Source of the DNA: Spirochaetaceae bacterium
GTDB taxonomy: Bacteria; Spirochaetota; Spirochaetia; Treponematales; Breznakiellaceae
Assembly: GCA_031273985.1 (NCBI GenBank)
Contig: JAISQV010000206.1
Span: 1-38,664 of the forward strand
DNA length: 38,664 nt
Reading direction: 5' to 3'
Position 1 is the stretch's first letter. Each line of letters starts with the position of its first letter. A model generated the notes under the pieces. That model did no database searches. It was not told where the DNA came from and saw only the letters and a program-made list of their open reading frames with translations. Below, piece by piece: positions 10,137 to 32,048 of this stretch. Position numbers and translations under genes: made by a program.

Positions 10137-10147
10137 GGGAAGCTCCT

Positions 10148-14192: not shown

Positions 14193-15695
14193 TCAGGCCC
14201 TGTCTTCAGGCCTGTCTTCGGTACCGGTACCGGCGGCGCGGTTCCGGCGCTGTTCGGCGCGGTACATATACTCTTCCCCGGCGGAGGTGCCGGCTTCGCG
14301 GCGGCTTTCGAGCTGTTCGCCGAAAGTTTTCTTGCTGCCGTCGGCGTTGGTTTCTGACAGGAAATGCTGCCGCTGGCTGTGGCGGTTTACGCCGCTGCCC
14401 GCTCCGGAGCTTCCGCCGCCGCTCCCCCCGCCGCCGCCGCCGAGGAGGCTCCGGGCGAGGTCGCCGCCTGAGGAGAGCAGGGCCTGCCCTGCGCTGCCGG
14501 CGAGGCTGCCCATGAAGGCTCCGGCCTTTTGGCCCTGGGTGCCGCCGAGGGTGCCCGCGGCTTTGGCCGCGGCCCCCGCCTGGGTGAGGGCGCCGACGCC
14601 GGCGAAGGCGGTTTGCGCCGCGCCCCCGGCTATCGCGCCCCCGGCCTGTTGCGCCAGGCGCATGGTCGCGCCGGCGGCGGCCAGGGCCCCGCCCGCCGCC
14701 GCTATGGCCCCGCCGGCGCTCAGGGACGGCGTGCCCGTCAGCAGCGACTGGGCCAGGGCCGGCGCGCTCTTGCAGAGAAAGAAGAAGAGCAGGCTTACGA
14801 AGAGCACGATGAGTATTTCGTCCGGGCGGCCCGTGAAGGGGGTCGCCGTGTAGCCTCTGGCCAGGGAGAGGAAACCGTAGAGCATGAGGAAAATACAGAT
14901 ATTGCAGAACAGCAGTTTTATGAAAAAGCCTATGACGGCGCCGACGAGCTTCTCGGCCATGAATTTGCTGCCCTCCCAGATGGAGAGGGGGAAGAGGATG
15001 ATCCCCACGCCGGTAACAAGCATATACTCCAGGAAGGCCATGAGGTATTCCAGCACGGCCAGAATCCCGGTGAGGATGACGAAGAAGCCGCACACCAGCC
15101 CGATGATGACCCGGCCAAAATCACTGGGAAGACCCCCAATACCTGTTGGCGCCTCCTCGGAATACCTGATGCACTCTCCCGCGATGAGGAGGACCACCTC
15201 CAGGGCCGCCGCGGGGGCGACGCAGGTGTAGGCCATGCCCCGGTGTTCCCGCGTTACCAGAAGGTTTGTGAAGTACATCAGGGGGTTCCGCTCTTCGGAA
15301 ACCTTGGCGGACCTCGTCGCGCGGGTGCCGTAGGTGCCCCTGACCGGGGAGTCATTCCGCTCCGCCTCTTCGGCTATGGCCTCCCGGGCCTGGTTCAGGT
15401 AGGCCTCGATGGAGAGGTAGGTGCTGGCCCGGGCCTTCTCGAAGGTCCAGGACGTTATGTGCCCAATGATCCGGGGGTAGGCCAGCATGATCACGATGAA
15501 GAAGATCACGGCCTTGCCTATCTTGATCAGGTTTTCCTTGAGCCCCTGGCCGGTGAGGGCGTAGTTGATCGCCGCGAGGGCCAGGGCTATGAAGAAGACT
15601 ATGCGCCCTATGGCCCAGGCTTCGCGGAGGAAGAAGGCCTGGAGGTCTATGAGTTTGTCGATGACATAGAAAAAGGCTTCGTTGAGGGTGTGCAT
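14193..15695 (-). CDS. trbL: T4SS protein TrbL / VirB6
   Basis: Polytopic membrane protein with a Gly/Ala-rich C-terminal tail. GGAGGAG RBS. Operon position between trbJ and trbF. Confidence 0.85.
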   Translation of the reverse strand: MHTLNEAFFYVIDKLIDLQAFFLREAWAIGRIVFFIALALAAINYALTGQGLKENLIKIGKAVIFFIVIMLAYPRIIGHITSWTFEKARASTYLSIEAYLNQAREAIAEEAERNDSPVRGTYGTRATRSAKVSEERNPLMYFTNLLVTREHRGMAYTCVAPAAALEVVLLIAGECIRYSEEAPTGIGGLPSDFGRVIIGLVCGFFVILTGILAVLEYLMAFLEYMLVTGVGIILFPLSIWEGSKFMAEKLVGAVIGFFIKLLFCNICIFLMLYGFLSLARGYTATPFTGRPDEILIVLFVSLLFFFLCKSAPALAQSLLTGTPSLSAGGAIAAAGGALAAAGATMRLAQQAGGAIAGGAAQTAFAGVGALTQAGAAAKAAGTLGGTQGQKAGAFMGSLAGSAGQALLSSGGDLARSLLGGGGGGSGGGSSGAGSGVNRHSQRQHFLSETNADGSKKTFGEQLESRREAGTSAGEEYMYRAEQRRNRAAGTGTEDRPEDRA

Positions 15696-15697
15696 AG

Positions 15698-16546
15698 TTA
15701 CTCCTCCGCTATGGGTTCAAAGAGGCTGCGGCCCCACATTTCGGAGAGGTCCGGGGGGTTGGGCGGGGTTCGGGATTGCCGGTCCCGGCTGAGCTGGTAC
15801 TCGTTGAATTCCGCGGTATCGTAGGAGATCTGGCGCAGGACGCGGTTGGTGTTGAGCGCCGCCTCCGCGAGGAGGGAGAGCAGGCCCTTCTCGCCCATGC
15901 GCTCGCTTTCGGGCAGGCTGCGGTCCTCTTCAAGCCGGGCGAGAGTCGCCTGGTCCTGTTCGGTGTCCCTCATGTGCTCCTCGTTCATGAGTTCCAGTTT
16001 GGTCATGATGTTACGCGCCAGGGTTTCCTCCCGCGCTTTCCAGGTCTGCACGTAGACATAGTTGGCCGGGGTGAGGCCCAGGTTAAGCCACATTTCCCGG
16101 CGCTGGCGCTCCGAAAATTCGTTATCCCAGTAATCCACGTAGGTTGATTCCATGGCGGCGGGGATCTCCGCCACGTCGGCCAGGCGGTAGGTGCGGCCTC
16201 CTATGCGGACGCCCATCCGGTTAAAGCGGGTTTCGGCCTGGCGCTCCAGGTAGAGCTGGCGGTTGTACCAGTCCATGAAGTCGTCCCAGCTGTTCACGCG
16301 GGTAACGTTCCTGAGGTTGTCCAGGGCCATTTGCTCCATGCGGAGCATATTCTGGAACTGGTTGTAGGTGTTCATGGCGTTTTCCACCATCTGGGCTATG
16401 GACTGGGCGTAGTAGGCCGCCTGGTCCAGGTGGGTGGCGCTCATGATGCCTTCCAGGATGGGGGCGGTAACGGCCATCTGCGCGCGGGCCCCCGGGGCCC
16501 CCCAAACGGAAAACAGAATCAGCGCGCTTAGCAACAGCTTTTTCAT
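15698..16546 (-). CDS. trbJ: T4SS protein TrbJ / VirB5
   Basis: Signal peptide MKKLLLSALILFSVWGAPGARA followed by a helical/coiled-coil protein. Position immediately upstream of trbL. Confidence 0.75.
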   Translation of the reverse strand: MKKLLLSALILFSVWGAPGARAQMAVTAPILEGIMSATHLDQAAYYAQSIAQMVENAMNTYNQFQNMLRMEQMALDNLRNVTRVNSWDDFMDWYNRQLYLERQAETRFNRMGVRIGGRTYRLADVAEIPAAMESTYVDYWDNEFSERQRREMWLNLGLTPANYVYVQTWKAREETLARNIMTKLELMNEEHMRDTEQDQATLARLEEDRSLPESERMGEKGLLSLLAEAALNTNRVLRQISYDTAEFNEYQLSRDRQSRTPPNPPDLSEMWGRSLFEPIAEE

Positions 16547-16734
16547 GGGGTTCTCCTCGTAGAACGGGTTATCGTTTCGGGCTACAACTGTTCACGCCGG
16601 GGGGAGTTTTGTTGTTACCGTCCGGCGGGGGATTTTAAGGGGGCGGAGCCCCCTTAGGAGAGGGGGGAGCGGAAGACCGCCGGTACTGCCGAAGGCAGGG
16701 ACGGCGGTCTGCAGCGGGGGGGAGGCTTCCCCCT

Positions 16735-17155
16735 CTAATATATAGTATTGGTTTTAACGCTTTGAGACCAAGCTTCAGCTATAGTGTAATCAGTAAAGGC
16801 ATGAGTAATTACGATACTTCCTTTTTCCGCAAAGCCAGCTACCGTAAAAGCATATTGCGAATCAGCAATGTTAATTTGAACACCGGAATATTGGGCGGAT
16901 ACATTCCAAGCTTGCAGGCTTGGCAGTAGAATTTCGTCTCCCGATACAAGGAAGCCGTTATTGGTTGCCAAACCAATGGTAATGAAATAAAGCCTGCCGT
17001 TCCTGACGTGCGGCATTATAACTTCAAGGGTAGTGCCGGTCTGCGAAAATTCATGCAGATAGTCCGCAATGATACCGGCTACATACACGGGCTCATTATC
17101 CTGCTGGGCAAAGAGGGCGGCGCCGCAGGGCTGACAAAAACAGTGTTTTTCTCAT
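16735..17155 (-). pseudogene. Small secreted-protein paralog P3, signal peptide disrupted by an 8-bp deletion
   Basis: ATG 17155 reads MRKTLFLSALRRRPLCPAG-stop. Relative to P2, the 8 nt CTGTGCTG are missing. The mature part is intact in another frame (track ORF 16735-17088). Confidence 0.7.
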
Positions 17156-17209
17156 TTGTTTCCCCTTTAGTAATGTGCAAGCCTGAGCGTTTGGGTCCAT
17201 CTATCCGCG

Positions 17210-17647
17210 CTAATAGTAATACGCAAGCCTGGCAGTTTGGACCCAATTCTCCAATGACTCATTATCAGGGAAAACATGGGTAACAATAATCCTTCCTGCC
17301 TCCGCAAAACCTGCGACGAATAAATGACCAGTATCGGAGCTGACATATTCAGTTTGACGGCCTTGGTATACGCCAAAAACAGTGTGTTCTGGCGATAGAA
17401 TAAATTGAACGCCGGGTCTTAAATTACCGTCTTCGGCAGGTAAGGCAGGGCTGAGAAAATACAATCGGCCATTTCGGATGAAAGGTTCAAGCTCTTTCAT
17501 CTCTTCATTTTCCATGCCGTTTTCTGCAAATTCACAAACGTAAGGACCGACAAGAAAATGATTCACATAGACGGGCTCATTATCCTGCTGGGCAAAGAGG
17601 GCGGCGCCGCAGCACAGCAGGGCTGACAGAAACAGTGCTTTTTTCAT
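17210..17647 (-). CDS. Small secreted/lipoprotein-like protein, paralog P2
   Basis: AAGGAG RBS. MKKALFLSALLCCGAALFAQQ signal. Paralogous to P1 and P3 (shared VAGFAE.G.I..TH.F). Confidence 0.75.
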   Translation of the reverse strand: MKKALFLSALLCCGAALFAQQDNEPVYVNHFLVGPYVCEFAENGMENEEMKELEPFIRNGRLYFLSPALPAEDGNLRPGVQFILSPEHTVFGVYQGRQTEYVSSDTGHLFVAGFAEAGRIIVTHVFPDNESLENWVQTARLAYYY

Positions 17648-17658
17648 TTGTTTCTCCT

Positions 17659-18078
17659 TTAGTAATGTACAAGCCTGAGCGTTTGGGTCCATCTATCCGC
17701 TGTTTCATAATCGGTAAAGATATGGGTAAGAACAATTTTTCCGGTTTCGGCGAACCCAGCGACAAAAAGAGGGGTTTCTGTGTCAATATTATTTATACGA
17801 TTACCTTGATACGTGGCGAAAACAGCCTGGGAACCCGGCAGCATAATAGAGTCTCCCGACACGAGGGAGCCGTTATGTATCGCCAAGCCAACAGAGGTGA
17901 AGTAAAGCCTGCCGTTTCTGACGTGCGGCATTATACTCTCAAGGGTAGTGCCGGTCTGCGAAAATTCATGCAGATAGTCCCCATAGGCACCGGCGACATA
18001 GACGGGCTCATTATTCTGCTGGGCGAAGAGGGCGGCGGCGCAGCACAGCAGGGCTGACAGAAACAGTGTTTTTTTCAT
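17659..18078 (-). CDS. Small secreted/lipoprotein-like protein, paralog P1
   Basis: MKKTLFLSALLCCAAALFAQQ signal. The ATG overlaps the stop of the upstream PLD-like fragment (ATGA). Confidence 0.75.
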   Translation of the reverse strand: MKKTLFLSALLCCAAALFAQQNNEPVYVAGAYGDYLHEFSQTGTTLESIMPHVRNGRLYFTSVGLAIHNGSLVSGDSIMLPGSQAVFATYQGNRINNIDTETPLFVAGFAETGKIVLTHIFTDYETADRWTQTLRLVHY

Positions 18079-18350
18079 TCTTTCATCCTTCTCAGAAAGC
18101 CGGCATAGATTTTTTCACCCAATTCGGCAAGGCCCCATTTACTGGAGTCATAGCTGTCGGTAACAAAGAGGCTGTTGAAGTAGCGAAGCAATTCATTGAC
18201 AACTTCCGGGTTCCTGAAGGTGAGGCATGATTCGGTATTGGTGTTCATACCGTATTCCGTAAAATTGAGGGAGCCCAGGTAAGCGCTTTCAATAAGGGCA
18301 TAGGGCATTTTACCGGAACGTTCAGGTTCCGTAAGGGGAGACTCGTCCAT
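18075..18350 (-). CDS. Degenerate PLD/Nuc-family C-terminal fragment
   Basis: GGAGGAAAG RBS before ATG 18350. GKMPYALIESAYLGSLNFTEYGMNTNTESCLTFRNPEVVNELLRYFNSLF matches the second half of an HKD motif (K...GS.N.T......N.E......P.......F). The catalytic His position is Ser and the N-terminal half of the fold is absent. Confidence 0.55.
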   Translation of the reverse strand: MDESPLTEPERSGKMPYALIESAYLGSLNFTEYGMNTNTESCLTFRNPEVVNELLRYFNSLFVTDSYDSSKWGLAELGEKIYAGFLRRMKE

Positions 18351-18416
18351 GCGGCTTTCCTCCTTCCGCGGGCGCATTGTAGCACGGGGGGAAGGGCGGC
18401 GCAAGGCGCCGGCGGG

Positions 18417-18650
18417 CTAGGTGGCGGTCTCTGTTACCCTGTAATCTTCGAGTTCTTTGAGGCGCCGGCGGGCGAGTTCCTCTACGATGTCCCCGGGAAG
18501 CATATCGAGGAATTCCTTATAAACGAGGCGCACTTTTCTCCCCGGTTTTGCCGGGGGGATGTCGGAGCAATCAACGGGGTGATTTTTTATTTCGTCAATT
18601 TCCCTGTCGAGGGCTGCCGGCTCATCGAAGGTATTGTCTGAACTGATCAT
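18417..18650 (-). CDS. brnA: BrnA-like antitoxin (DUF4415-like)
   Basis: GGAG RBS before ATG 18650. D-x-SDIPP motif (VDCSDIPPAKPG) and a C-terminal helical segment. Overlaps the brnT 3' end by 29 nt. Confidence 0.6.
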   Translation of the reverse strand: MISSDNTFDEPAALDREIDEIKNHPVDCSDIPPAKPGRKVRLVYKEFLDMLPGDIVEELARRRLKELEDYRVTETAT

Positions 18651-18942
18651 AATAATCTCCTGCTTCCACAGCCTCCGCGCGGCGGGCCGAAAAGACGCGT
18701 ATGAAACCGCCCCGGTAGGTAACGGAGACGGTAACGAGCACATGGCTGGCCAGGCCGGTGACGGAACCTGTAACATTGAAACGGTCTTCGGAGGTTGAAT
18801 TTTCACGGTCGTACTCTTCAATCAGAAAAGGATCGGAAAAGACCGCCGCGGCCGTTTCAAACCTGACGCGGTGTTTTTTCAGGTTTAGTTCCGCCTTTTG
18901 GGCGTCCCATATAAATTTATCTTTGTAGACAACATCGCCCAT
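18622..18942 (-). CDS. brnT: BrnT-family ribonuclease toxin (DUF497)
   Basis: FIWDAQKAELNLKKHRVRFETAAAVFSDP...EDRFNVTG...IRVFSARRA matches the BrnT pattern (F.WD..Ka..N..KHgv.FeeA..vF.Dp...E.R....G....iRiISAR). ATG 18942 was chosen over the track start. Confidence 0.8.
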   Translation of the reverse strand: MGDVVYKDKFIWDAQKAELNLKKHRVRFETAAAVFSDPFLIEEYDRENSTSEDRFNVTGSVTGLASHVLVTVSVTYRGGFIRVFSARRAEAVEAGDYYDQFRQYLR

Positions 18943-19000
18943 GAAAAGACACCATGTAAAACTATAGTATAGCGCCAGCCCTGCGTCAATCCGGCGCGCG

Positions 19001-21823
19001 TCACACAACCTGCGGCACGTTGCCTTCCCTGATGCGGGGGAGGGACTTACAGGCGGCGTAGAGGGTGATTTCGCCGCGTTTGACGGCCTCCACGAGGTCC
19101 GGTGTTCCGTTTTTGAGGAGGCTGCGGGCCTGGTAGACGGTGGAGGGGCTGACGCCTAAGCGTTCTGCGAGGCGCTCCGCGGCGCGCCCCGCGCCGTCTT
19201 TCCGCTTGCGCTGCGGGAGGGCGGCCACGGCGTCGAGGAGCTCCGCGGTTCCGGCATCGGGGATGGCCGCCGCGGTTTCGGGGCCGCGTTCCTCCCGCCC
19301 GGGTTCGGGTTGAGGCGCGGGCGCGGGAACGGCGGCGCGCTGCGGGGCCTCCCGGGGAGCGTCGGGCCCCCTGAGGGAGCGCCAGGGGACGCGGGCGTGG
19401 TCGAGTATATCGGCGCAGAGGGAGACGCCGCCGCCTTTTCCGGCGAGGAGTGCGTCGAGGAATGAGTGGTCGGCGCTCCCGATAAGGGCGAGGGTGAGGC
19501 GCCCGAGGTCGAGGCGGAAGAGGCGGCGCCCGAGGGGGCTGGTGTAGAAGTAATCCCGGCGCATTTCCGCGCCGGCAATGAGGGCTATTTCAGGGTCCGT
19601 GAGGCCGAAGGAACGGTAGACGGGCATCATGTTCTCGGTGAGGGCGGAGGGGTCCGCGAGGTAAATTTTGGTAAGGCACTGCTGGGTGATGGTGGTTTTG
19701 AGGGGCGATTTTTCGACGTCTGCGACGTCCTGGGTGGCGAAGACGACGAAGACATTTTTCTTGCGGAGCACCTTGAGCCATTCGGTAATTTTTTCGGCGA
19801 AGACGGGATTTTTGAGGAAGAGCCAGGCCTCGTCCAGGACGAGGAGTGTGAGGCGGCCGTCGAACAGTTTTTCTACCAGGTTGAAAAGGTAGACGAGGGC
19901 GGGGACGACGCAGCCTTCGCCGCGGTTCATGAGGGCCTCCATTTCAATGGCGAGAAAGGAGGTGTCCAGGGAGAGGGCTGAGGAACGGGCGTCGAAGATT
20001 TTGCCGTATTTGCCGCCGTCCCAGAGATAGTCGCCGAGCATTTCTTTGAAGACCGGGCGTTTTGAGACGGGGTCGAGGTAGTTGACGTACTGGAGGAAGC
20101 TGGTAATGGTGCGGGAAGCCGGGGGCTTTTCGCGGAGGAGTTCGAGGCTCTGCTTAATCTGGGCGCGCATGGGCGGGGAGACCTCGTAGCGGTTGACGGC
20201 GAAGCAGGCTTCGATGAAGTCGATGGCGTTCATGATGTCGCGGTCGGTTTCGAGGTCGCGGAGGGGCTGGAAGCTGACGGCTGCGGCGTTTTCGCCGGCG
20301 GGCTCGTAGAAGAGGCCTCCGGCGGCGAGGCAGGGCTGGCGGCAGGAGCGGCCCTTGTCGAAGACGATGACGCGGGAAGCGGGGTACTTGAAGAACTGCA
20401 TTTCCAGGAGGTTGAGGAAGGTGGACTTGCCCGCGCCGGTGGGGCCCCAGACGGCGGAGTGGCCGACGTCGGAGGGATTCATGTTAAAGAAGAAGGGTGT
20501 GCCTTCCTCGGTGGAGCAGATGAGGTGCGGGATGTCGACACCGGAGACGAGGCCGGCGTGTTCGTTACGGCGCATCCCGGCCCATACGGAGGAGAGGGGG
20601 AGGACGTGGGAGAGGGAGTAGGTCATGACGGGGAGGGAGCGGTAGTTGGCGTAGACCTGGCCCGGCATCATGGACTTCCATGCTTCGAGGGCGTTATAGG
20701 TTTCCTCCTTGCAGGTGAAGCCGGCGCTGTTGACGACAGCTTTTACTTTGTCTGCCTTTTTTTTGGCGGCTTTGAGGTCCCTGTCCCAGACCATGACGCA
20801 GCTCGTGTAGTAGCCGAGGGCGGCCTGGCCGGTTTCTATTTCTATCTGGGCGTCGATGGAGTCGTTTTCCTTGACTCCCGCGCCGTGGTTGACGGTTCTG
20901 GCGGGCTGCCCTGAGGTACTTTCAGCGAAGGTCTGCAGGAAGGTAGTTTTGCTGCCGCGGTGGGCCTTTTCTTTTTTGTGGGCCTCCTTTTTGCCGTCAT
21001 CCAGATCGAGGCAGATATAGCGGGAGACCCAGCGGTATTCGATACGGGAGCGGTTGAGTGTGTCGAGGATGGCGGGGTAGCTGTCTTCCGGGAAGTCGTT
21101 GACGCCGATGACAGGGATAAAGCAGTCGCCGAGCTTCATGGTGAGGGAGGTAACGAGCTCTGAATCCGGCAGGATGCGGTCGAGGAGTATCCTGGTTGCG
21201 GGGAAACGGATGGGGTGCCGGTTGAGGGAGACGCTGGAATGGAGGTAGGCGACGGTCTCCTCGTTGGAGAGGGGGGCGAGAAGCATATCGCGGGAAAGGA
21301 GCGCGGCAACGGCGTCTGTTTCGTTGACAAAGAAGTCTACGTTCTGCTTAATACCCTGGGCTCCTCCCGGAGCGTCCTGGTCCCTCCCGCTGCGGATGAA
21401 CATTTGGGTAAGCTTTTTCACGTTTTCCGAAGGGGGCTTCCAGATGAAGGTGAGGTAGTAACTGGACTCGAAGTGCTCGCCCGCGGCGCGGAAGGCGGCC
21501 TCCCGTTCGCGGTCTATGAGGTAGGGGGCGAGGGCGTCGAAGGAGCCCGGACGGCCGCCGAAGCCGGCCCTGGGGTATTCGGTGGTGTAGAAACGCTGGG
21601 CCTCCAGCTGGAAGGCCCAGCCTGAGCCGAGGCGTCTGGCGAAGTCGTTGACGCGGATGGCGAGGCTGTTGACCTCGAAGGCGCCTGAGGAGTCGATGTC
21701 CGGCGCGCGGTAGGCGAAGGAGCGCTGGAGGATTCCGTCTTTCTGGATGACGACACCTTCATGGAAACGGGTGATGAAGTTCCAAGGGAGGATTTGGTAG
21801 AAGAGGCCTGTAGATTCGCTCAT
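19001..21823 (-). CDS. trbE: T4SS ATPase TrbE / VirB4 with an extra C-terminal ParB-type HTH tail
   Basis: Walker A GPTGAGKST and Walker B LLVLDEAWLF. The N-terminus LPWNFITRFHEGVVIQKDGILQRSFAYRAPD is typical of TrbE. The last ~110 aa are a Pro/Ala linker plus an HTH paralogous to the ParB-like protein of this element. Confidence 0.9.
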   Translation of the reverse strand: MSESTGLFYQILPWNFITRFHEGVVIQKDGILQRSFAYRAPDIDSSGAFEVNSLAIRVNDFARRLGSGWAFQLEAQRFYTTEYPRAGFGGRPGSFDALAPYLIDREREAAFRAAGEHFESSYYLTFIWKPPSENVKKLTQMFIRSGRDQDAPGGAQGIKQNVDFFVNETDAVAALLSRDMLLAPLSNEETVAYLHSSVSLNRHPIRFPATRILLDRILPDSELVTSLTMKLGDCFIPVIGVNDFPEDSYPAILDTLNRSRIEYRWVSRYICLDLDDGKKEAHKKEKAHRGSKTTFLQTFAESTSGQPARTVNHGAGVKENDSIDAQIEIETGQAALGYYTSCVMVWDRDLKAAKKKADKVKAVVNSAGFTCKEETYNALEAWKSMMPGQVYANYRSLPVMTYSLSHVLPLSSVWAGMRRNEHAGLVSGVDIPHLICSTEEGTPFFFNMNPSDVGHSAVWGPTGAGKSTFLNLLEMQFFKYPASRVIVFDKGRSCRQPCLAAGGLFYEPAGENAAAVSFQPLRDLETDRDIMNAIDFIEACFAVNRYEVSPPMRAQIKQSLELLREKPPASRTITSFLQYVNYLDPVSKRPVFKEMLGDYLWDGGKYGKIFDARSSALSLDTSFLAIEMEALMNRGEGCVVPALVYLFNLVEKLFDGRLTLLVLDEAWLFLKNPVFAEKITEWLKVLRKKNVFVVFATQDVADVEKSPLKTTITQQCLTKIYLADPSALTENMMPVYRSFGLTDPEIALIAGAEMRRDYFYTSPLGRRLFRLDLGRLTLALIGSADHSFLDALLAGKGGGVSLCADILDHARVPWRSLRGPDAPREAPQRAAVPAPAPQPEPGREERGPETAAAIPDAGTAELLDAVAALPQRKRKDGAGRAAERLAERLGVSPSTVYQARSLLKNGTPDLVEAVKRGEITLYAACKSLPRIREGNVPQVV

Positions 21824-22077
21824 GGTAAGAAGACGTCCTTTTGGGAAATATTCTCGATGACGATGTCAATCATCCAGGGGTCCTTTCCGGTGAGGTAGCG
21901 CATGATGAGGTAGAGTATGACGATGGGGACGATGGTGAAGTAGAGTTCGAAGCCGTAGATGAAGATGACGGCGAGCATGAAGAGGAGGAGGAGGCCCGTT
22001 TGGGGGACACCTCCGGCGAGGTCCCTTGAGAGGAGGGAGCGGCGCACACGGCGTTTGTAGGGGGTCATATCAACCAT
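21820..22077 (-). CDS. trbD: T4SS protein TrbD / VirB3
   Basis: 85 aa with two hydrophobic segments. 4-nt overlap with trbE. Position after the pilin gene. Confidence 0.75.
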   Translation of the reverse strand: MVDMTPYKRRVRRSLLSRDLAGGVPQTGLLLLFMLAVIFIYGFELYFTIVPIVILYLIMRYLTGKDPWMIDIVIENISQKDVFLP

Positions 22078-22079
22078 GG

Positions 22080-22373
22080 TCAGCCCTGGGACGCGTTCCA
22101 GATGGCGTCGATGATGAGGGAAGCGCAGACGAGGATGGCCACGGCGATACCGATGGCGATAGCGTTACGCTTCATTTTTTCGTTGTCCTTGTTGAAGCCG
22201 TAGGCGACGGCGCAGCCGCAGAGGCAGATGATGAGGATGGTCTTTACGAAGGTGCCGGTAAAGACCGTCAGAATATCCTCCATGAGGCTGGTCATGCCTG
22301 AGGGGAGGATGTCCTGCGCGGAGAGCGGCAAGGAGCGCAGGGCGAAGAGAAGGAGAAGCAGCAGTAATTTCAT
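22080..22373 (-). CDS. trbC: T4SS pilin TrbC / VirB2
   Basis: 97 aa. Signal peptide (LLLLLLLFALRSLPLSA) followed by two hydrophobic helices. Sits directly upstream of trbD. Confidence 0.75.
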   Translation of the reverse strand: MKLLLLLLLFALRSLPLSAQDILPSGMTSLMEDILTVFTGTFVKTILIICLCGCAVAYGFNKDNEKMKRNAIAIGIAVAILVCASLIIDAIWNASQG

Positions 22374-22412: not shown

Positions 22413-23360
22413 TCAGCGGGCCGTTCCGCTTTCCCGTATTTCCTCTACCGTGAGGGCTTCGTCCACGACGGGCCCGAAACCCCTGCGGTAGGAAAGGTGC
22501 ACGACGATGTTGACAGCGTCGGCCAGGTCCGGAAGGGTACCGGCTATTTTCTGGCGGAGGAGGCCCTCGATGCGGGAGAGGGTGGAGGAGGCGCTGTCGG
22601 CATGGATGGTGGTGATGTTGCCGGGGTGGCCGGTGTTCCAGGCTTCGAGGAGTTCCACGGTAACATCGCCGGAACGCAGCTCGCCGAAGATGATGCGTTT
22701 CGGGGTCCAGCGGAGGGCGGTCTGGATGGCGGCGACGGCCTGCTCTTTTCTGATGTAGAGCTGGGTTTTGTTTTTGCCCCGGCACTGGAGTTCCGGGAGA
22801 TCCTCGATGAGGTAGAAGCGGTCGTCCGGCGAAAACTCCCGCATTTTTTCGATACAGGCGTTGGTGAAGGTGGTCTTGCCGGAACCTGTGGAGCCGGAAA
22901 TGACCATATTACTGCGGCGCTCTATATGGGCGACTATCTTGCGGTAGAGCTTTGCTGAAAGCCGCCCCTGCTCGCGGTATTGTTCGAGGGTGAAGACATC
23001 GCCCGCGGGGCGGCGGAAGGTTATTTCCGGGGACTCCACCCAGGGGGGCACGATGGCGGTAGTTCTGATCTTGTAGTCGGGGATGATGCTTTCCAGGGTG
23101 GGCCGCTCCCAGGTATCGATGGGGGTGTCGGAGACATTGGCCAGGCTGTTAATGATGCGCATACGCTCGGCGGGGGAGAGCCTGATTTCGGTGTCGTAAA
23201 GGCCTTTTAGAAAGTCATCGCACTGCACCGCGCCGTCTCCGTAGACATACACGTTGGTAACGGAGGCGGTCTCGAAGAAGGGGATGAGCGGGGCGAGATC
23301 GCCCATGAGGTTTTCCATCTCGCGCTCACGGCGCTCGAGCCCGTCCTCAATCCTGCCCAT
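22413..23360 (-). CDS. trbB: T4SS ATPase TrbB / VirB11
   Basis: Walker A SGSTGSGKTT, plus GELRSGD and GHPGNITTIHA motifs. ATG 23360 with a GGAGAA RBS was preferred to the TTG at 23399. Confidence 0.9.
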   Translation of the reverse strand: MGRIEDGLERREREMENLMGDLAPLIPFFETASVTNVYVYGDGAVQCDDFLKGLYDTEIRLSPAERMRIINSLANVSDTPIDTWERPTLESIIPDYKIRTTAIVPPWVESPEITFRRPAGDVFTLEQYREQGRLSAKLYRKIVAHIERRSNMVISGSTGSGKTTFTNACIEKMREFSPDDRFYLIEDLPELQCRGKNKTQLYIRKEQAVAAIQTALRWTPKRIIFGELRSGDVTVELLEAWNTGHPGNITTIHADSASSTLSRIEGLLRQKIAGTLPDLADAVNIVVHLSYRRGFGPVVDEALTVEEIRESGTAR

Positions 23361-23784
23361 CAGGTTCTCCGGAGAAATAGGTATGCAGGAGCCTTTCAAA
23401 GAAAGGGGGGTCGTTTTTAAGGCTTTCCTGGAAAGCCCTGAAGAAGGTGTCGTGCCGGGCGGAGGCCGATTTGAGGGCGGCGTCTGCCAGGTCCTGGTCT
23501 ATCTCCGCGTTATAGGCGAGCAGGTTGATGTGCATGAGGCGGAGGTAGCGGAAGGTGATGTCCAGCATATCCCCGAGCTCGTCCATTTTTTTCCGCATAT
23601 CGCCGAGGCCCTGGAGTTTGAGGGTTTCGTCCCGGTAATCGGCGTAGATGTACCTGGTTATGGCGTGGCGGATGAGCTCGGATTCGCTTTCGAGGCCCTT
23701 GTCCCTGCAATAGGTTTTGATGTCCGCCAGCATCTGCACGGGAAGGGAGCAGAGCTTTTTCTTCAGTTCCGGGCGTTTAGTCAT
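23347..23784 (-). CDS. Ribbon-helix-helix (CopG-like) protein
   Basis: KKLCSLPVQMLADIKTYCRDKGLESESELIRHAITRYI is an RHH pattern. ATG 23784 overlaps the traG stop. The upstream part of the track ORF was rejected. Confidence 0.7.
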   Translation of the reverse strand: MTKRPELKKKLCSLPVQMLADIKTYCRDKGLESESELIRHAITRYIYADYRDETLKLQGLGDMRKKMDELGDMLDITFRYLRLMHINLLAYNAEIDQDLADAALKSASARHDTFFRAFQESLKNDPPFFERLLHTYFSGEPDGQD

Positions 23785-25882
23785 ACGCGCCGGCCTTGAG
23801 GAAATTAGGGATTTCCCCGTCCTCCGGGAGGTCCTCCGCGTAGTCCCCGGCGGGGCCGTCTTCCGGGCCTGCTCCCTCTTCGGACTCGCCGCTGTAGCCG
23901 CCGTCATCGTAGAGCCCCCGGAGCTTTTCCTCCTGTTCCGCCAGGACCGCGGGGTCTTCGGCCTCGCCTTCCGGCGCGAACCAGCGGGGGCCCGAAAGCT
24001 TCGCTATGGCGGGCCGGGCTGCGCGCAGCGCGCCCTCCCGGTCGGTGAAGGCCGGCGGGAAGAGGCGCGCCTTGAAGACCGGGTCATCGTAGTACACGTT
24101 TTTTTTACCGATATAGGGCGGCTGCCCCTGGCAGATGAGAATGAACTCGTCCAGGGGGAGCTTCATCACCTCGTCGGCGTTGATAAGATTGCGCTCCTGG
24201 TCCTGGGCGCTGAGGCTCGCATTGTTGAAGCCCAGGGCCCCCCTTGCGCCCGAATAACTTATATTGGCCCGGCTTACGGATTCCCTGCCGCAAATCTTGC
24301 TTATGGTCTCGGCGTTATCATATTCCCCGGCGCCGGGGGCGTAGAAAATAGTGTTGCGGCAATGGGCCAGAAAGGAATGGTCTTTTCCGTAGATACTGTT
24401 GAGCTGGTTTATCGATTGGAAGATCAGGAAGTAGTGGATACCGAACCCGTTATGGATGCCCATGTTCATGTGCAGCTCCTCCATTTTGCCGAGCTTGTCG
24501 AACTCGTCGAGGATGAAGAGCAGGGGGATTTTGAATTTACGGTTTGTCGCCTGGGTTTCGCCGGAGGTGAAGCGGCGGGAGAAGAGCAGCACGAACATAC
24601 GGATCAGGGCGCTGATACGCTGGACGTCTGAGTACTGGATGGTGATGTACAGGCTTACGGGCACGGGGCTTTCCACAAATTCATCGATGTAGAATTCCGA
24701 GTTTTGGGTGTTGCGCTTGATTTTGGCGTCGGCGAAGACGGCCAGTGCGTTATTTACGGTGGAAAGCACGGAGCCGCCCTCGTCGCCGGGTCTTTTGCGC
24801 TGCGCGCCGGCGCCCTCCACGACGGACTGATGAATGGCGGGGTCCCCGTGGTCCGCGTTGATCATCAGATCGTAGATGTATTTGGTGTTTCCGGGGTCCG
24901 AGGGGTCCTGGAGTGCAAGGAATTCCCGGCATCCTGCCAGACTCTTGTTGGGCCAGTCGGAGCAGAGGCAGTGCAGGATCAGGGCTGTAAGGAAGTCGCG
25001 GGCCGCCGTGGTGAAGTGCTCGCTGGTGGCGTTGCCGGAGCCGGAGGCCGGCGTGGTGAGGATGTCGGCTTCGAGGTTGGCGTCGCTGAAGGCGTCCTCG
25101 CCCCCGCGGATCTCCATCATGGGGTTGAAGTGGTGCCCGGCGTTACCCACGGGCTCCCAGCGGTAGACCTTGCCGAATTTGGCGCGGAACCCCGAAGTCA
25201 GGTTGAAATTCTCTCCCTTGAAGTCCAGTACGATGACGCTGCCGGGATATGAGAGGAGGGTCGGTATGACGCTGGAGACGCCCTTGCCGCTCCGTGTGGG
25301 CGCGGAAAGGACGGTGTTATAGATGCCGGCCTGGATGATCTTCCGGGAAGGTTTGAGAAGATGCAGCACCACGGAATCCTTTTCCGTGTCGTAGACGGCG
25401 GAAAGCCGCGCCGCGCCGGTCTCTCCGAGGATCATGCCGCCCCGGAGCCCGAGGATGCCGGCCTTTTTCAGGTCCCGCACCGTGGCCCAGCGCGCCGTCC
25501 CGAAAATATTCTGTTTCCGGTTGCGCAGTATGATGAATTCGAGGAACAGGTAGAACACGATGGCGGAGACGGAGGTGTAGCCCGCTATTTTGACGGCCTC
25601 GTACAGGAAGGGATGTATGTCGAGGCGTTTGTAATAGACCAGGCACCAGTAGAAGATCAGGTAGGGCTTATACAGGGGGTAGGAGACGTTCCCGAAGCGG
25701 AGTACGGAGAAGGGAGCCCCCACCCAGCCGGGCTCGTAGTTCACGAGGGCGCAGAATCTCTGCGTACTGGCCCAGAAGCCGGCGATGATGATGAGGAAGG
25801 TTGTCAGTTTGAACAGCAGGCTGAGGAGCTGCTCTCCGGTGGTATCAACGGGCTTGCCCCGCAGGAATTCGTTCTTACTCAT
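23777..25882 (-). CDS. traG: Type IV coupling protein TraG / VirD4
   Basis: N-terminal TM segments, Walker A APTRSGKGVSSVIPTLL, Walker B LLFILDEFDKLG. Confidence 0.92.
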   Translation of the reverse strand: MSKNEFLRGKPVDTTGEQLLSLLFKLTTFLIIIAGFWASTQRFCALVNYEPGWVGAPFSVLRFGNVSYPLYKPYLIFYWCLVYYKRLDIHPFLYEAVKIAGYTSVSAIVFYLFLEFIILRNRKQNIFGTARWATVRDLKKAGILGLRGGMILGETGAARLSAVYDTEKDSVVLHLLKPSRKIIQAGIYNTVLSAPTRSGKGVSSVIPTLLSYPGSVIVLDFKGENFNLTSGFRAKFGKVYRWEPVGNAGHHFNPMMEIRGGEDAFSDANLEADILTTPASGSGNATSEHFTTAARDFLTALILHCLCSDWPNKSLAGCREFLALQDPSDPGNTKYIYDLMINADHGDPAIHQSVVEGAGAQRKRPGDEGGSVLSTVNNALAVFADAKIKRNTQNSEFYIDEFVESPVPVSLYITIQYSDVQRISALIRMFVLLFSRRFTSGETQATNRKFKIPLLFILDEFDKLGKMEELHMNMGIHNGFGIHYFLIFQSINQLNSIYGKDHSFLAHCRNTIFYAPGAGEYDNAETISKICGRESVSRANISYSGARGALGFNNASLSAQDQERNLINADEVMKLPLDEFILICQGQPPYIGKKNVYYDDPVFKARLFPPAFTDREGALRAARPAIAKLSGPRWFAPEGEAEDPAVLAEQEEKLRGLYDDGGYSGESEEGAGPEDGPAGDYAEDLPEDGEIPNFLKAGAYD

Positions 25883-28020: not shown

Positions 28021-29280
28021 TCACAGCTTAATCCCTTCCCGCCCGGCTCCCGAGGCCAGTTCCCGCGCAAGGGGGCCGGTGAAACCGCCTTCCGCTATCT
28101 CCCTCCGCACCTCGCTCCCGGAGCGTTTTACCATTACCGGCGTCAGGCGGCCCTGCTGGTTCTCACGAGCCTTGAGCGAAATAACGTCCCCATCGCGCAG
28201 CCACTGCCGCTCAGACCCCTCGCCGGCGGAGGGCCTCCGGAGAAGGGGCACGAAGTGCGCTTTCCCGTTGAGCCCTTCCAGCACTACCGCGTGGTTGTCG
28301 CTCGCGTCCCCGTCGATGCGGTACACCTTCGTTATTTTCCCGGTGATCTCCCCCTGCTCCCCCGTGTAGAGGCCCAGGCGGAGGGGGGAGGTGTACCGCA
28401 GCGCCCCGCGGGCCTTCAGAAAGGCGTTGTACCTTCCGTTGGCCTTGAGGCTTTCTTCCCACCGGGGGGAGAGTTTGTAGCCGCCGTCACTGTACCCGCA
28501 GAGTTTCAGCCTTTGCAGGTTCTCCAGCCGCTTCAGCAGGCGCCCCCGCTCCCGCTCGTCCCGCGCCCCTTCAAGGTTCACCCGGTAGGTGCCCCCGCAC
28601 AACTCTTTGAGCCGCCCGTCCAGCCTCGTGTAACGCGGCGCGGCCAGCTCCCGTTCCCGCTCGGTTTCCAGGTCTCCCCGGCTCCTCGCCCCGAGCTGGG
28701 CCGTGCACAGGTCCCGCGCGTGTTCCCGCATAAAGGTGCGCACCAGGTCTCTGGGGAATTCGACCTCCTTCCCGTTCCGGTCCCTGCCGTTGATCAGGAG
28801 GTGGGCGTGGGGATGCGCCGTGTTGTAGTGATTGGCGGCCTGCCAGTAAAGACGCAGCCCGGTCTCCATCTCAAGACGCTTCACGAAACGCTCCGTCAGC
28901 GCTTTCAGGTCCGCCTTGTCAGACTGGGGGCTCAGGAATATCCTGAAGTTCTTTCCGGCCATGTTTTGCCGGTACTCCTCCAGGTCTGTCCCGTAGAGCC
29001 GGGCCCGGCTTCCGTCCCGGTCAGTCCCCTCCCGGATCAGGTATTTCTCCAACTGGACCCGGTGCGCCTCTATGCTCCGGGAATACTGCATCTTGACCGT
29101 GCACTTCTGGCGGGCGTCAACGCGCCGAAACCTTCCCCCCCGGAACCCGCCGCCCGACCCCCGCGCCTTCCGGGGGCGCAGGAGCCGGGCCAGGGCCTGC
29201 GCCGAGTCCTGCCCCTCCCGCCTCCGCCTGAAGCCGGGTTTGATCCGGTATTCCCGGCTTTCAAATAAAAAATGACGCAC
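28021..29280 (-). CDS. Relaxase (VirD2-like / MOB-P-type relaxase-mobilisation nuclease)
   Basis: Histidine-triad motif NHYNTAHPHAHLLINGRD. The N-terminal FRIKPG...VKMQYSR...AHRVQLEKYLIREG pattern is typical of DUF3363-type relaxases. GTG start. Confidence 0.8.
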   Translation of the reverse strand: MRHFLFESREYRIKPGFRRRREGQDSAQALARLLRPRKARGSGGGFRGGRFRRVDARQKCTVKMQYSRSIEAHRVQLEKYLIREGTDRDGSRARLYGTDLEEYRQNMAGKNFRIFLSPQSDKADLKALTERFVKRLEMETGLRLYWQAANHYNTAHPHAHLLINGRDRNGKEVEFPRDLVRTFMREHARDLCTAQLGARSRGDLETERERELAAPRYTRLDGRLKELCGGTYRVNLEGARDERERGRLLKRLENLQRLKLCGYSDGGYKLSPRWEESLKANGRYNAFLKARGALRYTSPLRLGLYTGEQGEITGKITKVYRIDGDASDNHAVVLEGLNGKAHFVPLLRRPSAGEGSERQWLRDGDVISLKARENQQGRLTPVMVKRSGSEVRREIAEGGFTGPLARELASGAGREGIKL

Positions 29281-29355
29281 GGTTCACACCCCTGCAAGCT
29301 CTGAAAATAGAGCTTTATTCGCCTTCAGGCCGCGCAAGGGATAGCAGCGGAAATC

Positions 29356-29382: not shown

Positions 29383-29470
29383 ATTGGAGCGGATAGCCCG
29401 GTCCCCGGTGAAGCCGGGGATGCGCCCGTAGTCCGAATCGATGGTATGCGTAAGCTCTGATCGCATAGCT

Positions 29471-29758
29471 TTACTTTGCCTCCCGCTTCCATACCAAACG
29501 CCTGAGTTTTTGGGAAGGGCGGAAAATAATCTTGTCGTGCGCGGGGACTATGTTCTTTTGGGACCACAAGCTGGGATACTTTTTCTCTTGAATCTTCTTC
29601 ACCTCGAAGGTGCCCAGGCCCCGCAGCTCGATACGCTTGCCCTGGGCAAGGGTATCAGCCATCCAGTCAACCATGACGTTCACGCAGAGTGCCGCCTCGT
29701 GCATGGTGAGGCCCGTTCCCGCCCTCAGCGCCTGTATCAGGTCCCCGCGAGCCGCCAT
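29471..29758 (-). CDS. HU/IHF-family DNA-bending protein
   Basis: 95 aa. LTMHEAALCVNVMVDWMADTLAQGKRIELRGLGTFEVKK...IFRPSQKL matches the HU/IHF fold pattern. Confidence 0.85.
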   Translation of the reverse strand: MAARGDLIQALRAGTGLTMHEAALCVNVMVDWMADTLAQGKRIELRGLGTFEVKKIQEKKYPSLWSQKNIVPAHDKIIFRPSQKLRRLVWKREAK

Positions 29759-30013: not shown

Positions 30014-30148
30014 GTTATTCGCTCGATTCGCAGAGCTTTGCCCGGTTATTCGCTTTACTAGCAGAGCATTGGCCCTGTTTTGGGCGGTTATTCGCTCTGT
30101 TCGCAGAGCTTTGCCCTTTTTATTCGCTTTACTAGCAGAGCAACGGGG
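30014..30148. repeat. Four ~30-bp direct repeats TTATTCGCT-N6/7-GCAGAGC (centromere/parS-like array)
   Basis: TTATTCGCT occurs at 30015, 30046, 30088 and 30120. Two alternating subtypes (..CGATTCGCAGAGCTTTGCCC and ..TTACTAGCAGAGCA). A related near-palindrome TGCTTTACTAGCAAAGCA (30333-30350) abuts the parB stop. Confidence 0.6.
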
Positions 30149-30162
30149 CGGAGAAGTACAGG

Positions 30163-30308
30163 CTAAGTACCGGGTGCACCCGTGGTATATACCGCTAAGT
30201 GCCGGGCAAACCCGTGAGTTAGCCGCTGCCGGTATATACCCAAAACCGGCTGGATATACCGCCAAGTGCCGGGTAAACCCGTGAGTTACAGCGGCCGGAT
30301 ATACACCC
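30163..30308. repeat. Second repeat family with GGTATATACC palindromes and GGC(T/C)GGATATAC border-like motifs (candidate oriT)
   Basis: Units at 30163-30193, 30194-30240 and 30261-30308 share (C)TAAGT(A/G)CCGGG-N4-CCCGTG. GGTATATACC occurs at 30184-30193 and 30231-30240. GGATATAC occurs at 30252-30259 and 30297-30304. Confidence 0.6.
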
Positions 30309-30350
30309 TTTATCTTGCCTCCATGGGCCATTTGCTTTACTAGCAAAGCA

Positions 30351-31178
30351 TTACACCTCATCAATCAGCGCTTTTCGCGTATTCCCGGGCAAAAGCGCGT
30401 AAAAAACCGCTTTTTCGCCCTTTTTCAGGAAATGATCGACCAATAACCGAGCCGGAGCCGCTTCGCTCATCGCAATCAAGTGAATAACCGCGCTCCGTAA
30501 AAATTTATTCCTGATGCCGGTCTGGTAATCAGCGGATTCCCGGCTTTCCTTTTCAGAAGCAGCAGCAGCCTCCGCCCCGGTGCCGGCGGAGGCTTTTCCC
30601 CTCCGGGGTTTGGTGATCTGCTTGTACACCGCCCCGATTGTCTTCTCCCCGCTCTGTACCGCTTTCAGCTCCTCTTCCGGCGCTTCCAGCAGAATCTTCC
30701 GTGCCTGGTATATCGTCGAGGGGCTCACCCCGATCCGCTCCGCAAGCTGCTCCGCGGCGCGCCCCGTCCCGTCCTTCTTCTTCCTCCCGTGAATCATCTG
30801 CGCCGCCTGCAGTATCTCCGAAGAAGTAAGATTGCGCCGTAATACCTGCCGCTCGAAGGTATAGAGCATCGCCTCTTCCATGTCGGCAAACTCCATCTCC
30901 GCCGCGGGTATCTCATCCAGCCCGAGCTCCTTCGCCGCGGCAAGCCGCGTGTGCCCGTCTACCAGAATATTCCGCCCTTTCCATATTACGACGGGCTGGC
31001 TCTTGTCGTAGCCGAATTTCTCGATCTTCTCTTTGATCTCAAGAAAGGTCTTGTTTTCGATCTTGAAAATCCGGGCTATCTCAGGCTCTATCACCACGTC
31101 AGCCACCCGCACGGGTTTCGCATAGTAGTTCCGCCCGGCGTTCCAGCCCGCCGTCTCAGGCGTCTCAAGCCGGGCCAT
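30351..31178 (-). CDS. parB: ParB-like nuclease/partition protein
   Basis: ParB N-domain ILVDGHTRLAAAKELGL and HTH GRAAEQLAERIGVSPSTIYQARKIL. ATG 31178 overlaps the parA stop (ATGA). The longer track ORF start was rejected. Confidence 0.85.
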   Translation of the reverse strand: MARLETPETAGWNAGRNYYAKPVRVADVVIEPEIARIFKIENKTFLEIKEKIEKFGYDKSQPVVIWKGRNILVDGHTRLAAAKELGLDEIPAAEMEFADMEEAMLYTFERQVLRRNLTSSEILQAAQMIHGRKKKDGTGRAAEQLAERIGVSPSTIYQARKILLEAPEEELKAVQSGEKTIGAVYKQITKPRRGKASAGTGAEAAAASEKESRESADYQTGIRNKFLRSAVIHLIAMSEAAPARLLVDHFLKKGEKAVFYALLPGNTRKALIDEV

Positions 31179-31993
31179 CAGAAGACCCCCGGCGCTTCCA
31201 GGGCGCCTTCGAAAAAGCAGCCGGCCAGCTCCGCTATCGCATGGTACAGGGCCGGGTTGTATACCGCCCCCGGCGCATCTTTCATGCAGGTAAGACGTTT
31301 GTGGTAATCCACCACCAGGTGTATCTGCGCCGTCCAGGGCAGCCATGTCTCCACCGGCGTCAGGGGAAACCCTCCCTTCCGGTACAAATCGATAAAATCA
31401 CTCTGCCGCCCGGAACGGGCCTCCTCGTAGCGCCGGTTGTAGCCGTTGATCAGGACGTACCAGCTTTTCAGGTCTTCCACATCCCTCGGCAGCACCTCGC
31501 TCATGAACATCGCCGCGTTGTAACTGAATAAATCCTTCAGTACCGGCGTTATGATGTAGTCCGCCGCGTGAAACGTGTTGAGCACAATGTTGTCGTAGGT
31601 CGGGTGGCAGTCGATGATCAGAATGTCGTACTTCCCGTAGAGGCCCGGAACCAGGCGCTTGAGCCGTTTCTCGCTCAGGGTCCTCATGTCGGCAAGGTAG
31701 GGCGTGGACGCTATCAGGTCCACCCCCGGCGTGTCGGTCGGCACGGCGAAGGAGCTCAGATCGTTGCCCTCATCGCTCAGCGCCGCCGCCAGATTCAGCT
31801 TCCGGGTCCGTTCCATCATCTCTTTGTTCAGAAAGTAAAAAGAGAGGCTGTTGTTCAGGTCGCTGTCGGCAAGCACTACCCGCTTGCCCGCGGCCGCGCA
31901 ATACTTGGCCAGCAGGATGGCTATGTTCGTTTTTCCCACCCCGCCCTTGATGAATCCCAACGACACTACCGTCGTCTTCGCTTCCTTTTCCAT
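31178..31993 (-). CDS. parA: ParA/Soj-family partition ATPase
   Basis: Deviant Walker A FIKGGVGKTN. GGAGGA RBS before ATG 31993. Confidence 0.9.
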   Translation of the reverse strand: MEKEAKTTVVSLGFIKGGVGKTNIAILLAKYCAAAGKRVVLADSDLNNSLSFYFLNKEMMERTRKLNLAAALSDEGNDLSSFAVPTDTPGVDLIASTPYLADMRTLSEKRLKRLVPGLYGKYDILIIDCHPTYDNIVLNTFHAADYIITPVLKDLFSYNAAMFMSEVLPRDVEDLKSWYVLINGYNRRYEEARSGRQSDFIDLYRKGGFPLTPVETWLPWTAQIHLVVDYHKRLTCMKDAPGAVYNPALYHAIAELAGCFFEGALEAPGVF

Positions 31994-32048
31994 TTGGCTT
32001 TCCTCCCACAAATGGCTTGTTTTCGGGAGAGCGGCCCTCTCCCGCCTC

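Follow-up and report, generated by a model that had tools for sequence, protein, structure and literature searches.

A ParB-type helix-turn-helix domain at the C-terminus of TrbE/VirB4 in a lineage of spirochaete integrative conjugative elements

The 38,664-nucleotide stretch of a Spirochaetaceae bacterium examined here (contig JAISQV010000206.1 of assembly GCA_031273985.1, positions 1 to 38,664, taken as a whole and referred to as the window) represents an integrative conjugative element with a Trb-type type IV secretion system (T4SS). Its trbE/virB4 gene occupies positions 19001..21823 of the reverse strand and forms an uninterrupted open reading frame (ORF) of 940 amino acids (aa) followed by a stop codon. 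The encoded protein consists of a TrbE/VirB4 core (residues 1-814, 19382..21823, the end being set by the TrbE profile), a flexible linker rich in Pro, Ala and Glu (residues 815-857, 19253..19381) and a domain for binding DNA, of the ParB helix-turn-helix (HTH) type (residues 858-932, 19028..19252), hereafter called the tail, all encoded on the reverse strand. A ParB-type DNA-binding domain has not previously been described for TrbE/VirB4, and the protein that carries it belongs to one lineage of spirochaete elements. Neither a VirB4-HTH fusion nor these elements were found in the literature searched, which included a 2025 review of T4SSs and a 2025 survey of ParB-fold fusions.

Membership of the protein in the VirB4/TrbE superfamily is secure from profile and motif matches. 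The NCBIfam TrbE model PRK13873 aligns its profile positions 16-796 of 815 with residues 10-814 of the 940-aa protein (E 1.5e-214), and TIGR00929 (VirB4_CagE) covers residues 21-790 (E 1.3e-115). Pfam recognises P-loop_TraG at residues 458-752 (E 4.4e-14) and CagE_TrbE_VirB at residues 321-395. The Walker A (GPTGAGKST) and Walker B (LLVLDEAW) motifs are present, and G460-P461-T462-G463, G465-K466-S467-T468 and D664-E665 are invariant in the alignment of homologues. Both family scores fall under the curated cut-offs (714 bits against 1020 for PRK13873, and 387.5 against 643.1 for TIGR00929), which argues that the protein belongs to a divergent spirochaete branch and is not an equivalog of the proteobacterial TrbE.

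Since the TrbE profile stops at residue 814, residues 815-940 lie beyond the family. Pfam and NCBIfam hold no family for this region, the sole matches being sub-threshold hits to HTH_23 and HTH_28 at residues 880-910; current domain libraries miss it, and the domain deserves a family model. PF27097 (VirB4_TrbE_N), which has a precomputed match on every listed homologue including the window's own protein (P0001), was considered as the family of the tail and rejected, being an N-terminal VirB4 domain. In an AlphaFold2 (AF2) model of the full-length protein, the core is confident up to approximately residue 829, residues 830-857 have pLDDT <50, and the tail is folded separately and is helical. 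The linker has a calculated isoelectric point (pI) of 4.8. The original prediction, made from the letters of this stretch, had placed an HTH in frame after the end of the VirB4 homology. The ORF is indeed continuous, the C-terminus quoted there is present, and the profile stops at residue 814.

The fusion is conserved among the closest relatives of the window protein. A search over 5.8 billion proteins returned 1316 relatives of TrbE; the best 120 clusters, which were the ones analysed, have 62-75% identity, lengths of 869-989 aa and 93-100% query coverage. They come from many independent JGI, ENA and NCBI assemblies, the named ones being Spirochaetaceae, Treponema or Termitinemataceae. A phmmer search with the tail alone detected it at the C-terminus in 118 of these 120 nearest clusters. 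In the full-length alignment of 121 proteins, the truncated P0111 is the only one that lacks most of the HTH domain. Mean pairwise identity among the 121 homologues is 70.6% in the core, 23% in the linker and 47.8% in the HTH. The linker varies from 36 to 77 aa (P 18%, A 13%, E 10%), and the HTH, with a median of 75 residues, has almost no indels. This comparison shows the TrbE-HTH fusion to be real, old and under purifying selection. Taken with the structural model, the pattern is that expected of a functional domain on a flexible tether, not of a read-through artefact.

Scans of public contigs with the protein and with the alignment gave few usable loci among the matches listed, 4 from genomes and 9 from metagenomes (loci bear L numbers below); patterns derived from the alignment proved too generic for such scans (Walker A). 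The TrbE of L005, from a metagenome-assembled genome of Spirochaetales, is a tail-less sister, 53% identical to the window protein and 810 aa long; it ends ...CAEILIEKGVAFKRYL at the equivalent of approximately residue 816, exactly at the junction. The gene in the VirB5 position follows 25 nt after trbE in L005, with no separate HTH gene after trbE. The TrbE proteins of L007 (54% identity) and L009 (42%) also lack the tail. About 3000 plasmid records contain a TrbE/VirB4 homologue, and none of the 15 matches listed aligns past query residue 817; the best is from a Treponema succinifaciens plasmid (query residues 11-817). A tblastn search with the tail alone against 72,556 plasmid records gave no match, which, along with the literature searched, agrees with the view of the original prediction that a VirB4 with an HTH tail had not been described. 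On these comparisons, possession of the tail is the derived state of TrbE. A representative library at 50% identity contains one full-length tail-bearing VirB4 (P0135, 946 aa) and about eleven C-terminal VirB4 fragments, and the single full-length representative suggests that the tail-bearing proteins form essentially one clade.

The tail is homologous to part of another protein of the window. BLASTP aligns it without gaps to the ParB-like ORF at 30351..31346 of the reverse strand, with 37 of 77 positions identical (48%), 69% positives and an E-value of 3e-20, and the alignment matches only residues 175-251 of that ORF. Within the residues quoted in the original prediction, identity reaches 32 of 57 (56%) and is concentrated in the first half (RK.KDG.GRAAE.LAER.GVSPST.YQAR), so the homology proposed there stands. 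A domain hidden Markov model run against the six-frame translation of the window found exactly two copies, at 19037-19249 and 30603-30842. The ParB N-terminal domain, used as a query, has no second copy in the window; what precedes the tail is the TrbE core and linker. An exhaustive phmmer search with the tail produced 193 matches at E <=0.001, and the 265 domain-bearing proteins retrieved comprise 130 VirB4 tails or fragments, 71 ParB-like proteins and 64 that are neither. The ParB-like proteins are 250-330 aa long and match at approximately residues 120-190, directly after the ParB N-terminal domain. A profile built from 58 tail and ParB HTHs matches the HTH of Thermus Spo0J (1vz0 residues 134-177, E 0.007).

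Tails and ParB HTHs have in common the signature DG.GRAA...A...GVS..T[VI]Y.AR, extending from helix 2 through the turn and over the recognition helix. For the tail (87 aa modelled), AF2 gives a model with five helices, a pLDDT of 82.7 and no wing strands. When this model is compared with the PDB by Foldseek, the DNA-binding domains of Spo0J, KorB, Noc, Caulobacter ParB, P1 ParB and SopB dominate the matches, every one at E >1 and with TM-scores of 0.37-0.49; the best superpositions are with Noc (7ng0, TM 0.47, root-mean-square deviation 3.0 over 73 columns) and KorB (1r71, TM 0.48). The tails have a median pI of 10.1 and a net charge of +7, against +3 for the ParB HTHs. Modelling shows the tail as a predicted independently folded, strongly basic five-helix HTH. 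Homology, together with a predicted fold whose matches are individually weak, identifies it as a putative ParB-family DNA-binding domain without the CTPase or dimerisation domains; it also lacks the ParA-interaction peptide.

The original prediction regarded the tail as an intra-element duplication of the HTH of the ParB-like gene, citing an 18-nt DNA match. The match is exact (19174-19191 and 30749-30766), and a run of this length appears in approximately 1% of codon-usage simulations, a mild outlier that favours a recent copy. The codon-aligned DNA of the tail and the ParB-like HTH is, however, 55% identical over 231 nt, and the same codon is used at 13 of the 37 identical residues, against 16.2 expected from independent draws from the codon usage of the element; synonymous sites are therefore saturated. 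The 18-nt match does not appear to be a mark of recent copying. Recent gene conversion was likewise considered as its source and finds no support in the overall codon identity.

The window, L003 and L021 are the three elements with both genes, too few to decide on co-evolution of tail and ParB. Among them, tail-tail identity is 43-61% and ParB-ParB identity 47-75%, against 30-47% between tail and ParB; tail-tail values of 59-61% and a ParB-ParB value of 75% lie above all those between tail and ParB. Tail-ParB identity within an element (0.47, 0.43 and 0.34) is not meaningfully higher than between elements (0.30-0.43). The window tail shares 47% identity with its own ParB and 49, 47, 47 and 45% with the ParBs of other elements, its own ParB being one of several about equally close relatives and not the nearest. 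Since orthologues resemble each other more than paralogues do, and since a ParB from another element comes closest to the window tail, the capture of the HTH predates the radiation of these elements. The donor was a ParB-like HTH of the same family, though not the one now encoded nearby. In a neighbour-joining tree built from 268 HTH domains, internal branches (0.006-0.016) are short beside the terminal ones (about 0.2), which gives it a star-like shape too flat to settle strict monophyly of the tails; it contains a clade of 114 domains with 99 tails and no ParB, and a loose clade that unites 129 of the 130 tails with 12 ParBs. A fresh duplication of the element's own ParB HTH, an assembly or sequencing error or a recently lost stop codon is a very improbable source of the tail, given that the same in-frame fusion recurs in 118 of 120 independent clusters, that shared codons do not exceed chance and that orthologues are more alike than paralogues. 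These observations refute a recent copy or an assembly artefact, and the proposed duplication from the element's own ParB is not supported.

The domain also occurs outside TrbE. In L001 and L002, a 154-aa gene begins 6 nt after the trbE stop codon; at its N-terminus it carries the domain once more, in a copy that shares 68% identity with the tail of the same element. L019 has a 135-aa solo gene in its cargo region. An 81-aa stand-alone gene (P0125) on contig L020 is 89% identical to the tail of P0035 and 76% identical to that of P0029, and in P0123 and P0160 the domain is joined to an unrelated N-terminal region. The stand-alone copies group among the tails, not the ParBs, share 68-89% identity with particular tails and seem to have been spun off from the tail. 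Together with the other fusions, they would show that the domain works autonomously. The ParB HTH circulates within these elements as an independent module, found in ParB-like proteins, TrbE tails, small solo genes and other fusions.

Two further points of the original prediction can be judged by these genes. Fusion of a separate HTH gene to trbE by loss of a stop codon is possible as an ancient origin, but L005 has no HTH gene after trbE and the solo genes look tail-derived. An independent gene for the tail in related elements, named there as grounds for refutation, exists only in a weak sense: such genes stand either beside a tail-bearing TrbE or elsewhere, and not at that position in L005.

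Within the element, a tyrosine integrase gene (809-2254) is followed by that of topoisomerase III. The transfer genes include TrbI (11168-12508), followed by CagX/VirB9 and VirB8, then TrbL (14193-15695) and the gene in the VirB5 position (15698-16546). A trbD/virB3-like gene (21820-22077) lies immediately upstream of trbE, with a trbC/virB2-like gene (22080-22373), TrbB (22413-23399) and VirD4 (23777-25882) beyond it. Next in this order come an ArdC-like gene and the gene of a MobA/VirD2-type relaxase (DUF3363, 28021..29280, reverse strand). The transfer region also contains a 1053-aa ORF without a Pfam match (6990-10151, reverse strand), and large orphan genes occupy the matching position after trbI in L003 (1306 aa), L018 (1881 aa) and L022 (669 aa). 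Upstream of virD4, giant fusions of MuF_C, N6-methylase and SNF2 helicase (1780-2577 aa) are found in the larger relatives L001 (1-4172), L018 (1-4360) and L023 (1-5275); anti-restriction or DNA modification is a possible function of this cargo.

The slot between the trbE stop codon and the gene in the VirB5 position (16547-19000 in the window) is a cargo hotspot. In the window it contains BrnT (18622-19008), whose ORF overlaps the trbE stop, and what is probably its partner (18417-18821). A PLD-like remnant, itself truncated (18075-18404), lies there too, along with three small ORFs (17659-18078, 17210-17692 and 16735-17088) that are paralogous and begin with N-termini resembling signal peptides. 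In relatives, the slot holds HicA, ArdC-N, PLD nucleases, RelB/YoeB, a HipA-like kinase or an extra solo HTH. In L023, a HipA_C kinase gene (12873-14066) starts 77 nt beyond the TrbE tail, and the interval contains no HipB-like gene. L020, an 807-nt contig from the same ENA sample, carries its solo tail-type HTH of 81 aa, which shares 76% identity with the L023 tail. This gene lies 13 nt upstream of a HipA-N-like ORF (297-806) that is homologous to the N-terminus of the L023 kinase (E 1e-5). A role as HipB-like partner is possible for the tail-type HTH.

Both arrangements, and the richness of the slot after the tail in toxin-antitoxin genes (BrnT in the window, HicA in L003, RelB/YoeB in L019), would fit a tail that acts as a protein-interaction or cargo module, either as a HipB-like antitoxin or regulator for the downstream toxins or as a dock for ParA, ParB or the relaxosome. 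We consider such a role of the TrbE tail quite improbable. The tail is constant while the downstream cargo is different in every element, BrnT/BrnA, RelB/YoeB and similar pairs are self-contained, and the conserved residues are those of a DNA-reading HTH in a strongly basic domain.

A partition-type module lies beyond the relaxase gene. The ParB-like homologues start at residue 57 of the 331-aa ORF (30351..31346), and the gene is therefore taken as 30351..31178 on the reverse strand, encoding 275 aa from Met57; its HTH, the paralogue of the TrbE tail, is encoded at 30594..30824 on the same strand. The protein matches Spo0J in the PDB (1vz0, E 4.7e-6) across the N-terminal domain and the HTH, and matches TIGR00180 (parB_part) at E 4.6e-9, under the cut-off of that model. 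The gene start overlaps, at 31178, the stop codon of a ParA-type ATPase gene (31178..32011, reverse strand; Pfam AAA_31, CbiA, MipZ and ParA), beyond which the genes are apparently chromosomal (e.g., NAPRTase). On the other side, an HU/IHF-like DNA-binding protein is encoded at 29471..29758 on the reverse strand (Pfam Bac_DNA_binding, E 2e-15), downstream of a repeat array, in an order that is the same in L003 and L021. In L005 (1-5136), which has a relaxase of the same type, the place of the ParA-ParB-HU module upstream of it is taken by genes for SSB, a staphylococcal-nuclease homologue and a 445-aa orphan. The single element L005 hints that the tail and the ParB-like module co-occur.

The array offers a candidate DNA target. 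Four parS-like imperfect palindromes (30017..30144, repeat families D1 and D2) are of the GCTCTG-N4-CAGAGC / GCTTTACTAGCAGAGC type, followed by GAATAA on the gene strand, and a fifth (30330..30352) overlaps the ParB-like stop codon. They enclose a second repeat block (30160..30310, repeat families D3-D5, D7 and D9, and inverted repeats I6, I9 and I10) with GGTATATACC / GGATATAC motifs and inverted repeats of 20-25 nt, a candidate origin of transfer (oriT) with equivalents at 1160-1310 in L003 and 1120-1280 in L021. The latter two loci have six near-perfect palindromes each in the same position (TGCTCTACCAGTAGAGCA and GCTCTACCGGTAGAGC), and a palindrome at the fifth-site position is also present in both (1115-1132 in L003, 1082-1097 in L021). 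The palindromes are 16-18 bp long, and the HU-like and relaxase genes follow directly downstream of the array in the window, L003 and L021. A search of the window at <=3 mismatches found no further copies outside the array, 0 being expected by chance. Near-matches are present in the HU-relaxase intergenic region at 29298-29313 (GCTCTGAAAATAGAGC), 18 nt upstream of the relaxase start, and at 29454-29469 (GCTCTGATCGCATAGC); the corresponding spacer of L003 has no palindrome, and in L021 the HU and relaxase genes abut without a spacer. No palindromes were found near the trb/virB4 genes in the window or in six related loci. The inner repeats (e.g., GGCGGTATATCCAGCC) appear to resemble the TATATCCTG nick cores of MOBP systems and T-DNA borders. 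Given this resemblance and the MobA/VirD2-type relaxase next door, an oriT is probably enclosed by the parS-like sites. The recognition helices of the ParBs of the window, L003 and L021 (SPSTIYQARKIL, SPATIYQARKIM and SAATIYQAQKIA) and of the corresponding tails (SPSTVYQARSLL, SQATVYQARRLL and SEATVYLARKII) are nearly alike (S.[SA]T[VI]Y[QL]A[RQ]).

We tentatively favour, at somewhat short of an even chance, a function in which the tail tethers the oriT-flanking region of the element to the base of the T4SS. VirB4 is assembled at the entrance of the channel as a hexamer of dimers (review PMC12857230). Its C-terminal ATPase domain would face the cytoplasm at the channel base in many copies per machine, and the tails would thereby hang below the T4SS as a ring of arms, flexible and able to bind specific DNA sequences. 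Their target would be DNA of the element itself, most likely the parS-like palindromes that bracket the oriT-like block, and binding would hold the transfer origin and the relaxosome at the channel entrance. Tethering is supported by retention of the fusion in 118 of the 120 clusters with a fixed HTH length and a variable linker, by the tail-less state of L005, L007, L009 and the plasmid homologues listed, and by the conserved palindrome array beside the HU and relaxase genes in three elements. The ParB-type signature and basic charge of the tail, its separate fold in the full-length model, the near-likeness of its recognition helix to that of the ParBs and the occurrence of the domain on its own elsewhere also speak for it.

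Several points weigh against tethering. The tail and the ParB-like protein may recognise different sequences: the two are 30-47% identical, a systematic difference follows the recognition helix (helices with G.PEL in tails but A.EED in ParBs), and the three available pairs give no signal of tail-ParB co-evolution within elements. The tail lacks the ParB dimerisation domain that is normally needed to grip a palindrome, and no Foldseek match of this short domain is individually significant (all E >1). In known systems, the relaxosome is recruited by VirD4 and not by VirB4 (PMC12857230), and VirB11 docks at the base of the central VirB4 hexamer, where it could hinder access (PMC12857230).

The position of the array is also open to a regulatory explanation, the main rival of tethering, in which the tail is a KorB-like operator-binding module, and TrbE, free or assembled, binds the array and represses or de-represses the transfer genes, coupling their expression to the amount or assembly state of the T4SS. 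We regard this feedback as unlikely, though well ahead of a cargo function. The array ends approximately 13 nt before the HU gene in L021 and lies upstream of the HU-relaxase-tra genes in all three elements, so that any local promoter must overlap it. ParB-family regulators of transfer genes are known, namely KorB/TrbA of RK2 (PMC11790492, PMC13584720) and BisD of ICEclc (PMC12409273). The solo versions of the domain, at 81-154 aa, resemble small regulators. On the other hand, no palindrome lies near the trb/virB4 genes in the window, L001, L003 or L017-L019, and a full ParB-like protein that could do the job is already encoded. To our knowledge, a regulator carried on a membrane-associated 940-aa ATPase has no precedent among T4SSs.

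A bolder form of the tethering proposal, possible but in our estimate doubtful, makes VirB4 a sequence-specific DNA receptor. Its HTH arms would capture the palindromes bracketing oriT, and the partition site would double as an address tag. Docking on VirB4 would supplement or partly replace docking on VirD4, and would switch the element between segregation by ParB and transfer. VirB4 is the most conserved component of T4SSs and a marker for the classification of conjugation systems, and in the prevailing view it supplies energy as an ATPase without reading DNA sequence. A ParB-type domain present on VirB4 throughout a clade suggests a direct link between the transfer machine and a specific site of the element, possibly the same as the partition site. 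These elements offer a simple natural system for the study of how an origin finds its channel, and of how partition, regulation and transfer are coordinated.

Compared with other P-type (Trb) T4SSs, the window TrbE has the same N-terminal domain, P-loop ATPase and position after trbC and trbD, and the same neighbours trbB, trbL, virB8, virB9, trbI and virD4. It differs in its 126 extra C-terminal residues, which are absent from the NCBIfam and Pfam profiles, the listed plasmid homologues and L005. With ParB, Spo0J, KorB and Noc, the tail has the HTH signature in common, and it is paralogous to the ParB-like protein encoded beside ParA. Unlike them, it is attached to a secretion ATPase and lacks the N-terminal ParB/Srx CTPase domain with its GxxR box; without CTPase and dimerisation domains, it cannot form a CTP-gated sliding clamp.

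The closest parallel in architecture is outside the T4SSs. The gamma domain of FtsK/SpoIIIE, which reads KOPS, and the winged HTH of Streptomyces TraB, which reads clt, are C-terminal repeat-reading HTHs joined by a flexible linker to a hexameric P-loop ATPase. The tail-bearing VirB4 has the same architecture and logic, within the FtsK/HerA/VirB4/VirD4 assemblage, and the likeness is one of analogy only. FtsK and TraB belong to another motor family and use a winged helix, whereas here a VirB4/TrbE motor carries an all-helical ParB-type HTH and transfer is relaxase-dependent and single-stranded; we know of no report that VirB4 itself pumps DNA. The outcome proposed here, an oriT-proximal complex linked to a T4SS ATPase, is also that of F TraM, which recruits TraD, and of Ti VirC1/VirC2, which recruit the T-complex to VirD4. 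VirC1 is of the ParA type and sets a precedent for partition-type parts in substrate recruitment. TraM and the VirC proteins are separate DNA-binding proteins that contact TraD or VirD4, whereas here the DNA-binding domain is covalently part of VirB4. KorB of RK2 and BisD of ICEclc are likewise ParB-family HTH proteins of conjugative elements that act near the tra genes (PMC11790492, PMC13584720, PMC12409273). They are free, CTP-dependent clamps, whereas the tail described here lacks the CTPase domain and is tethered to TrbE.

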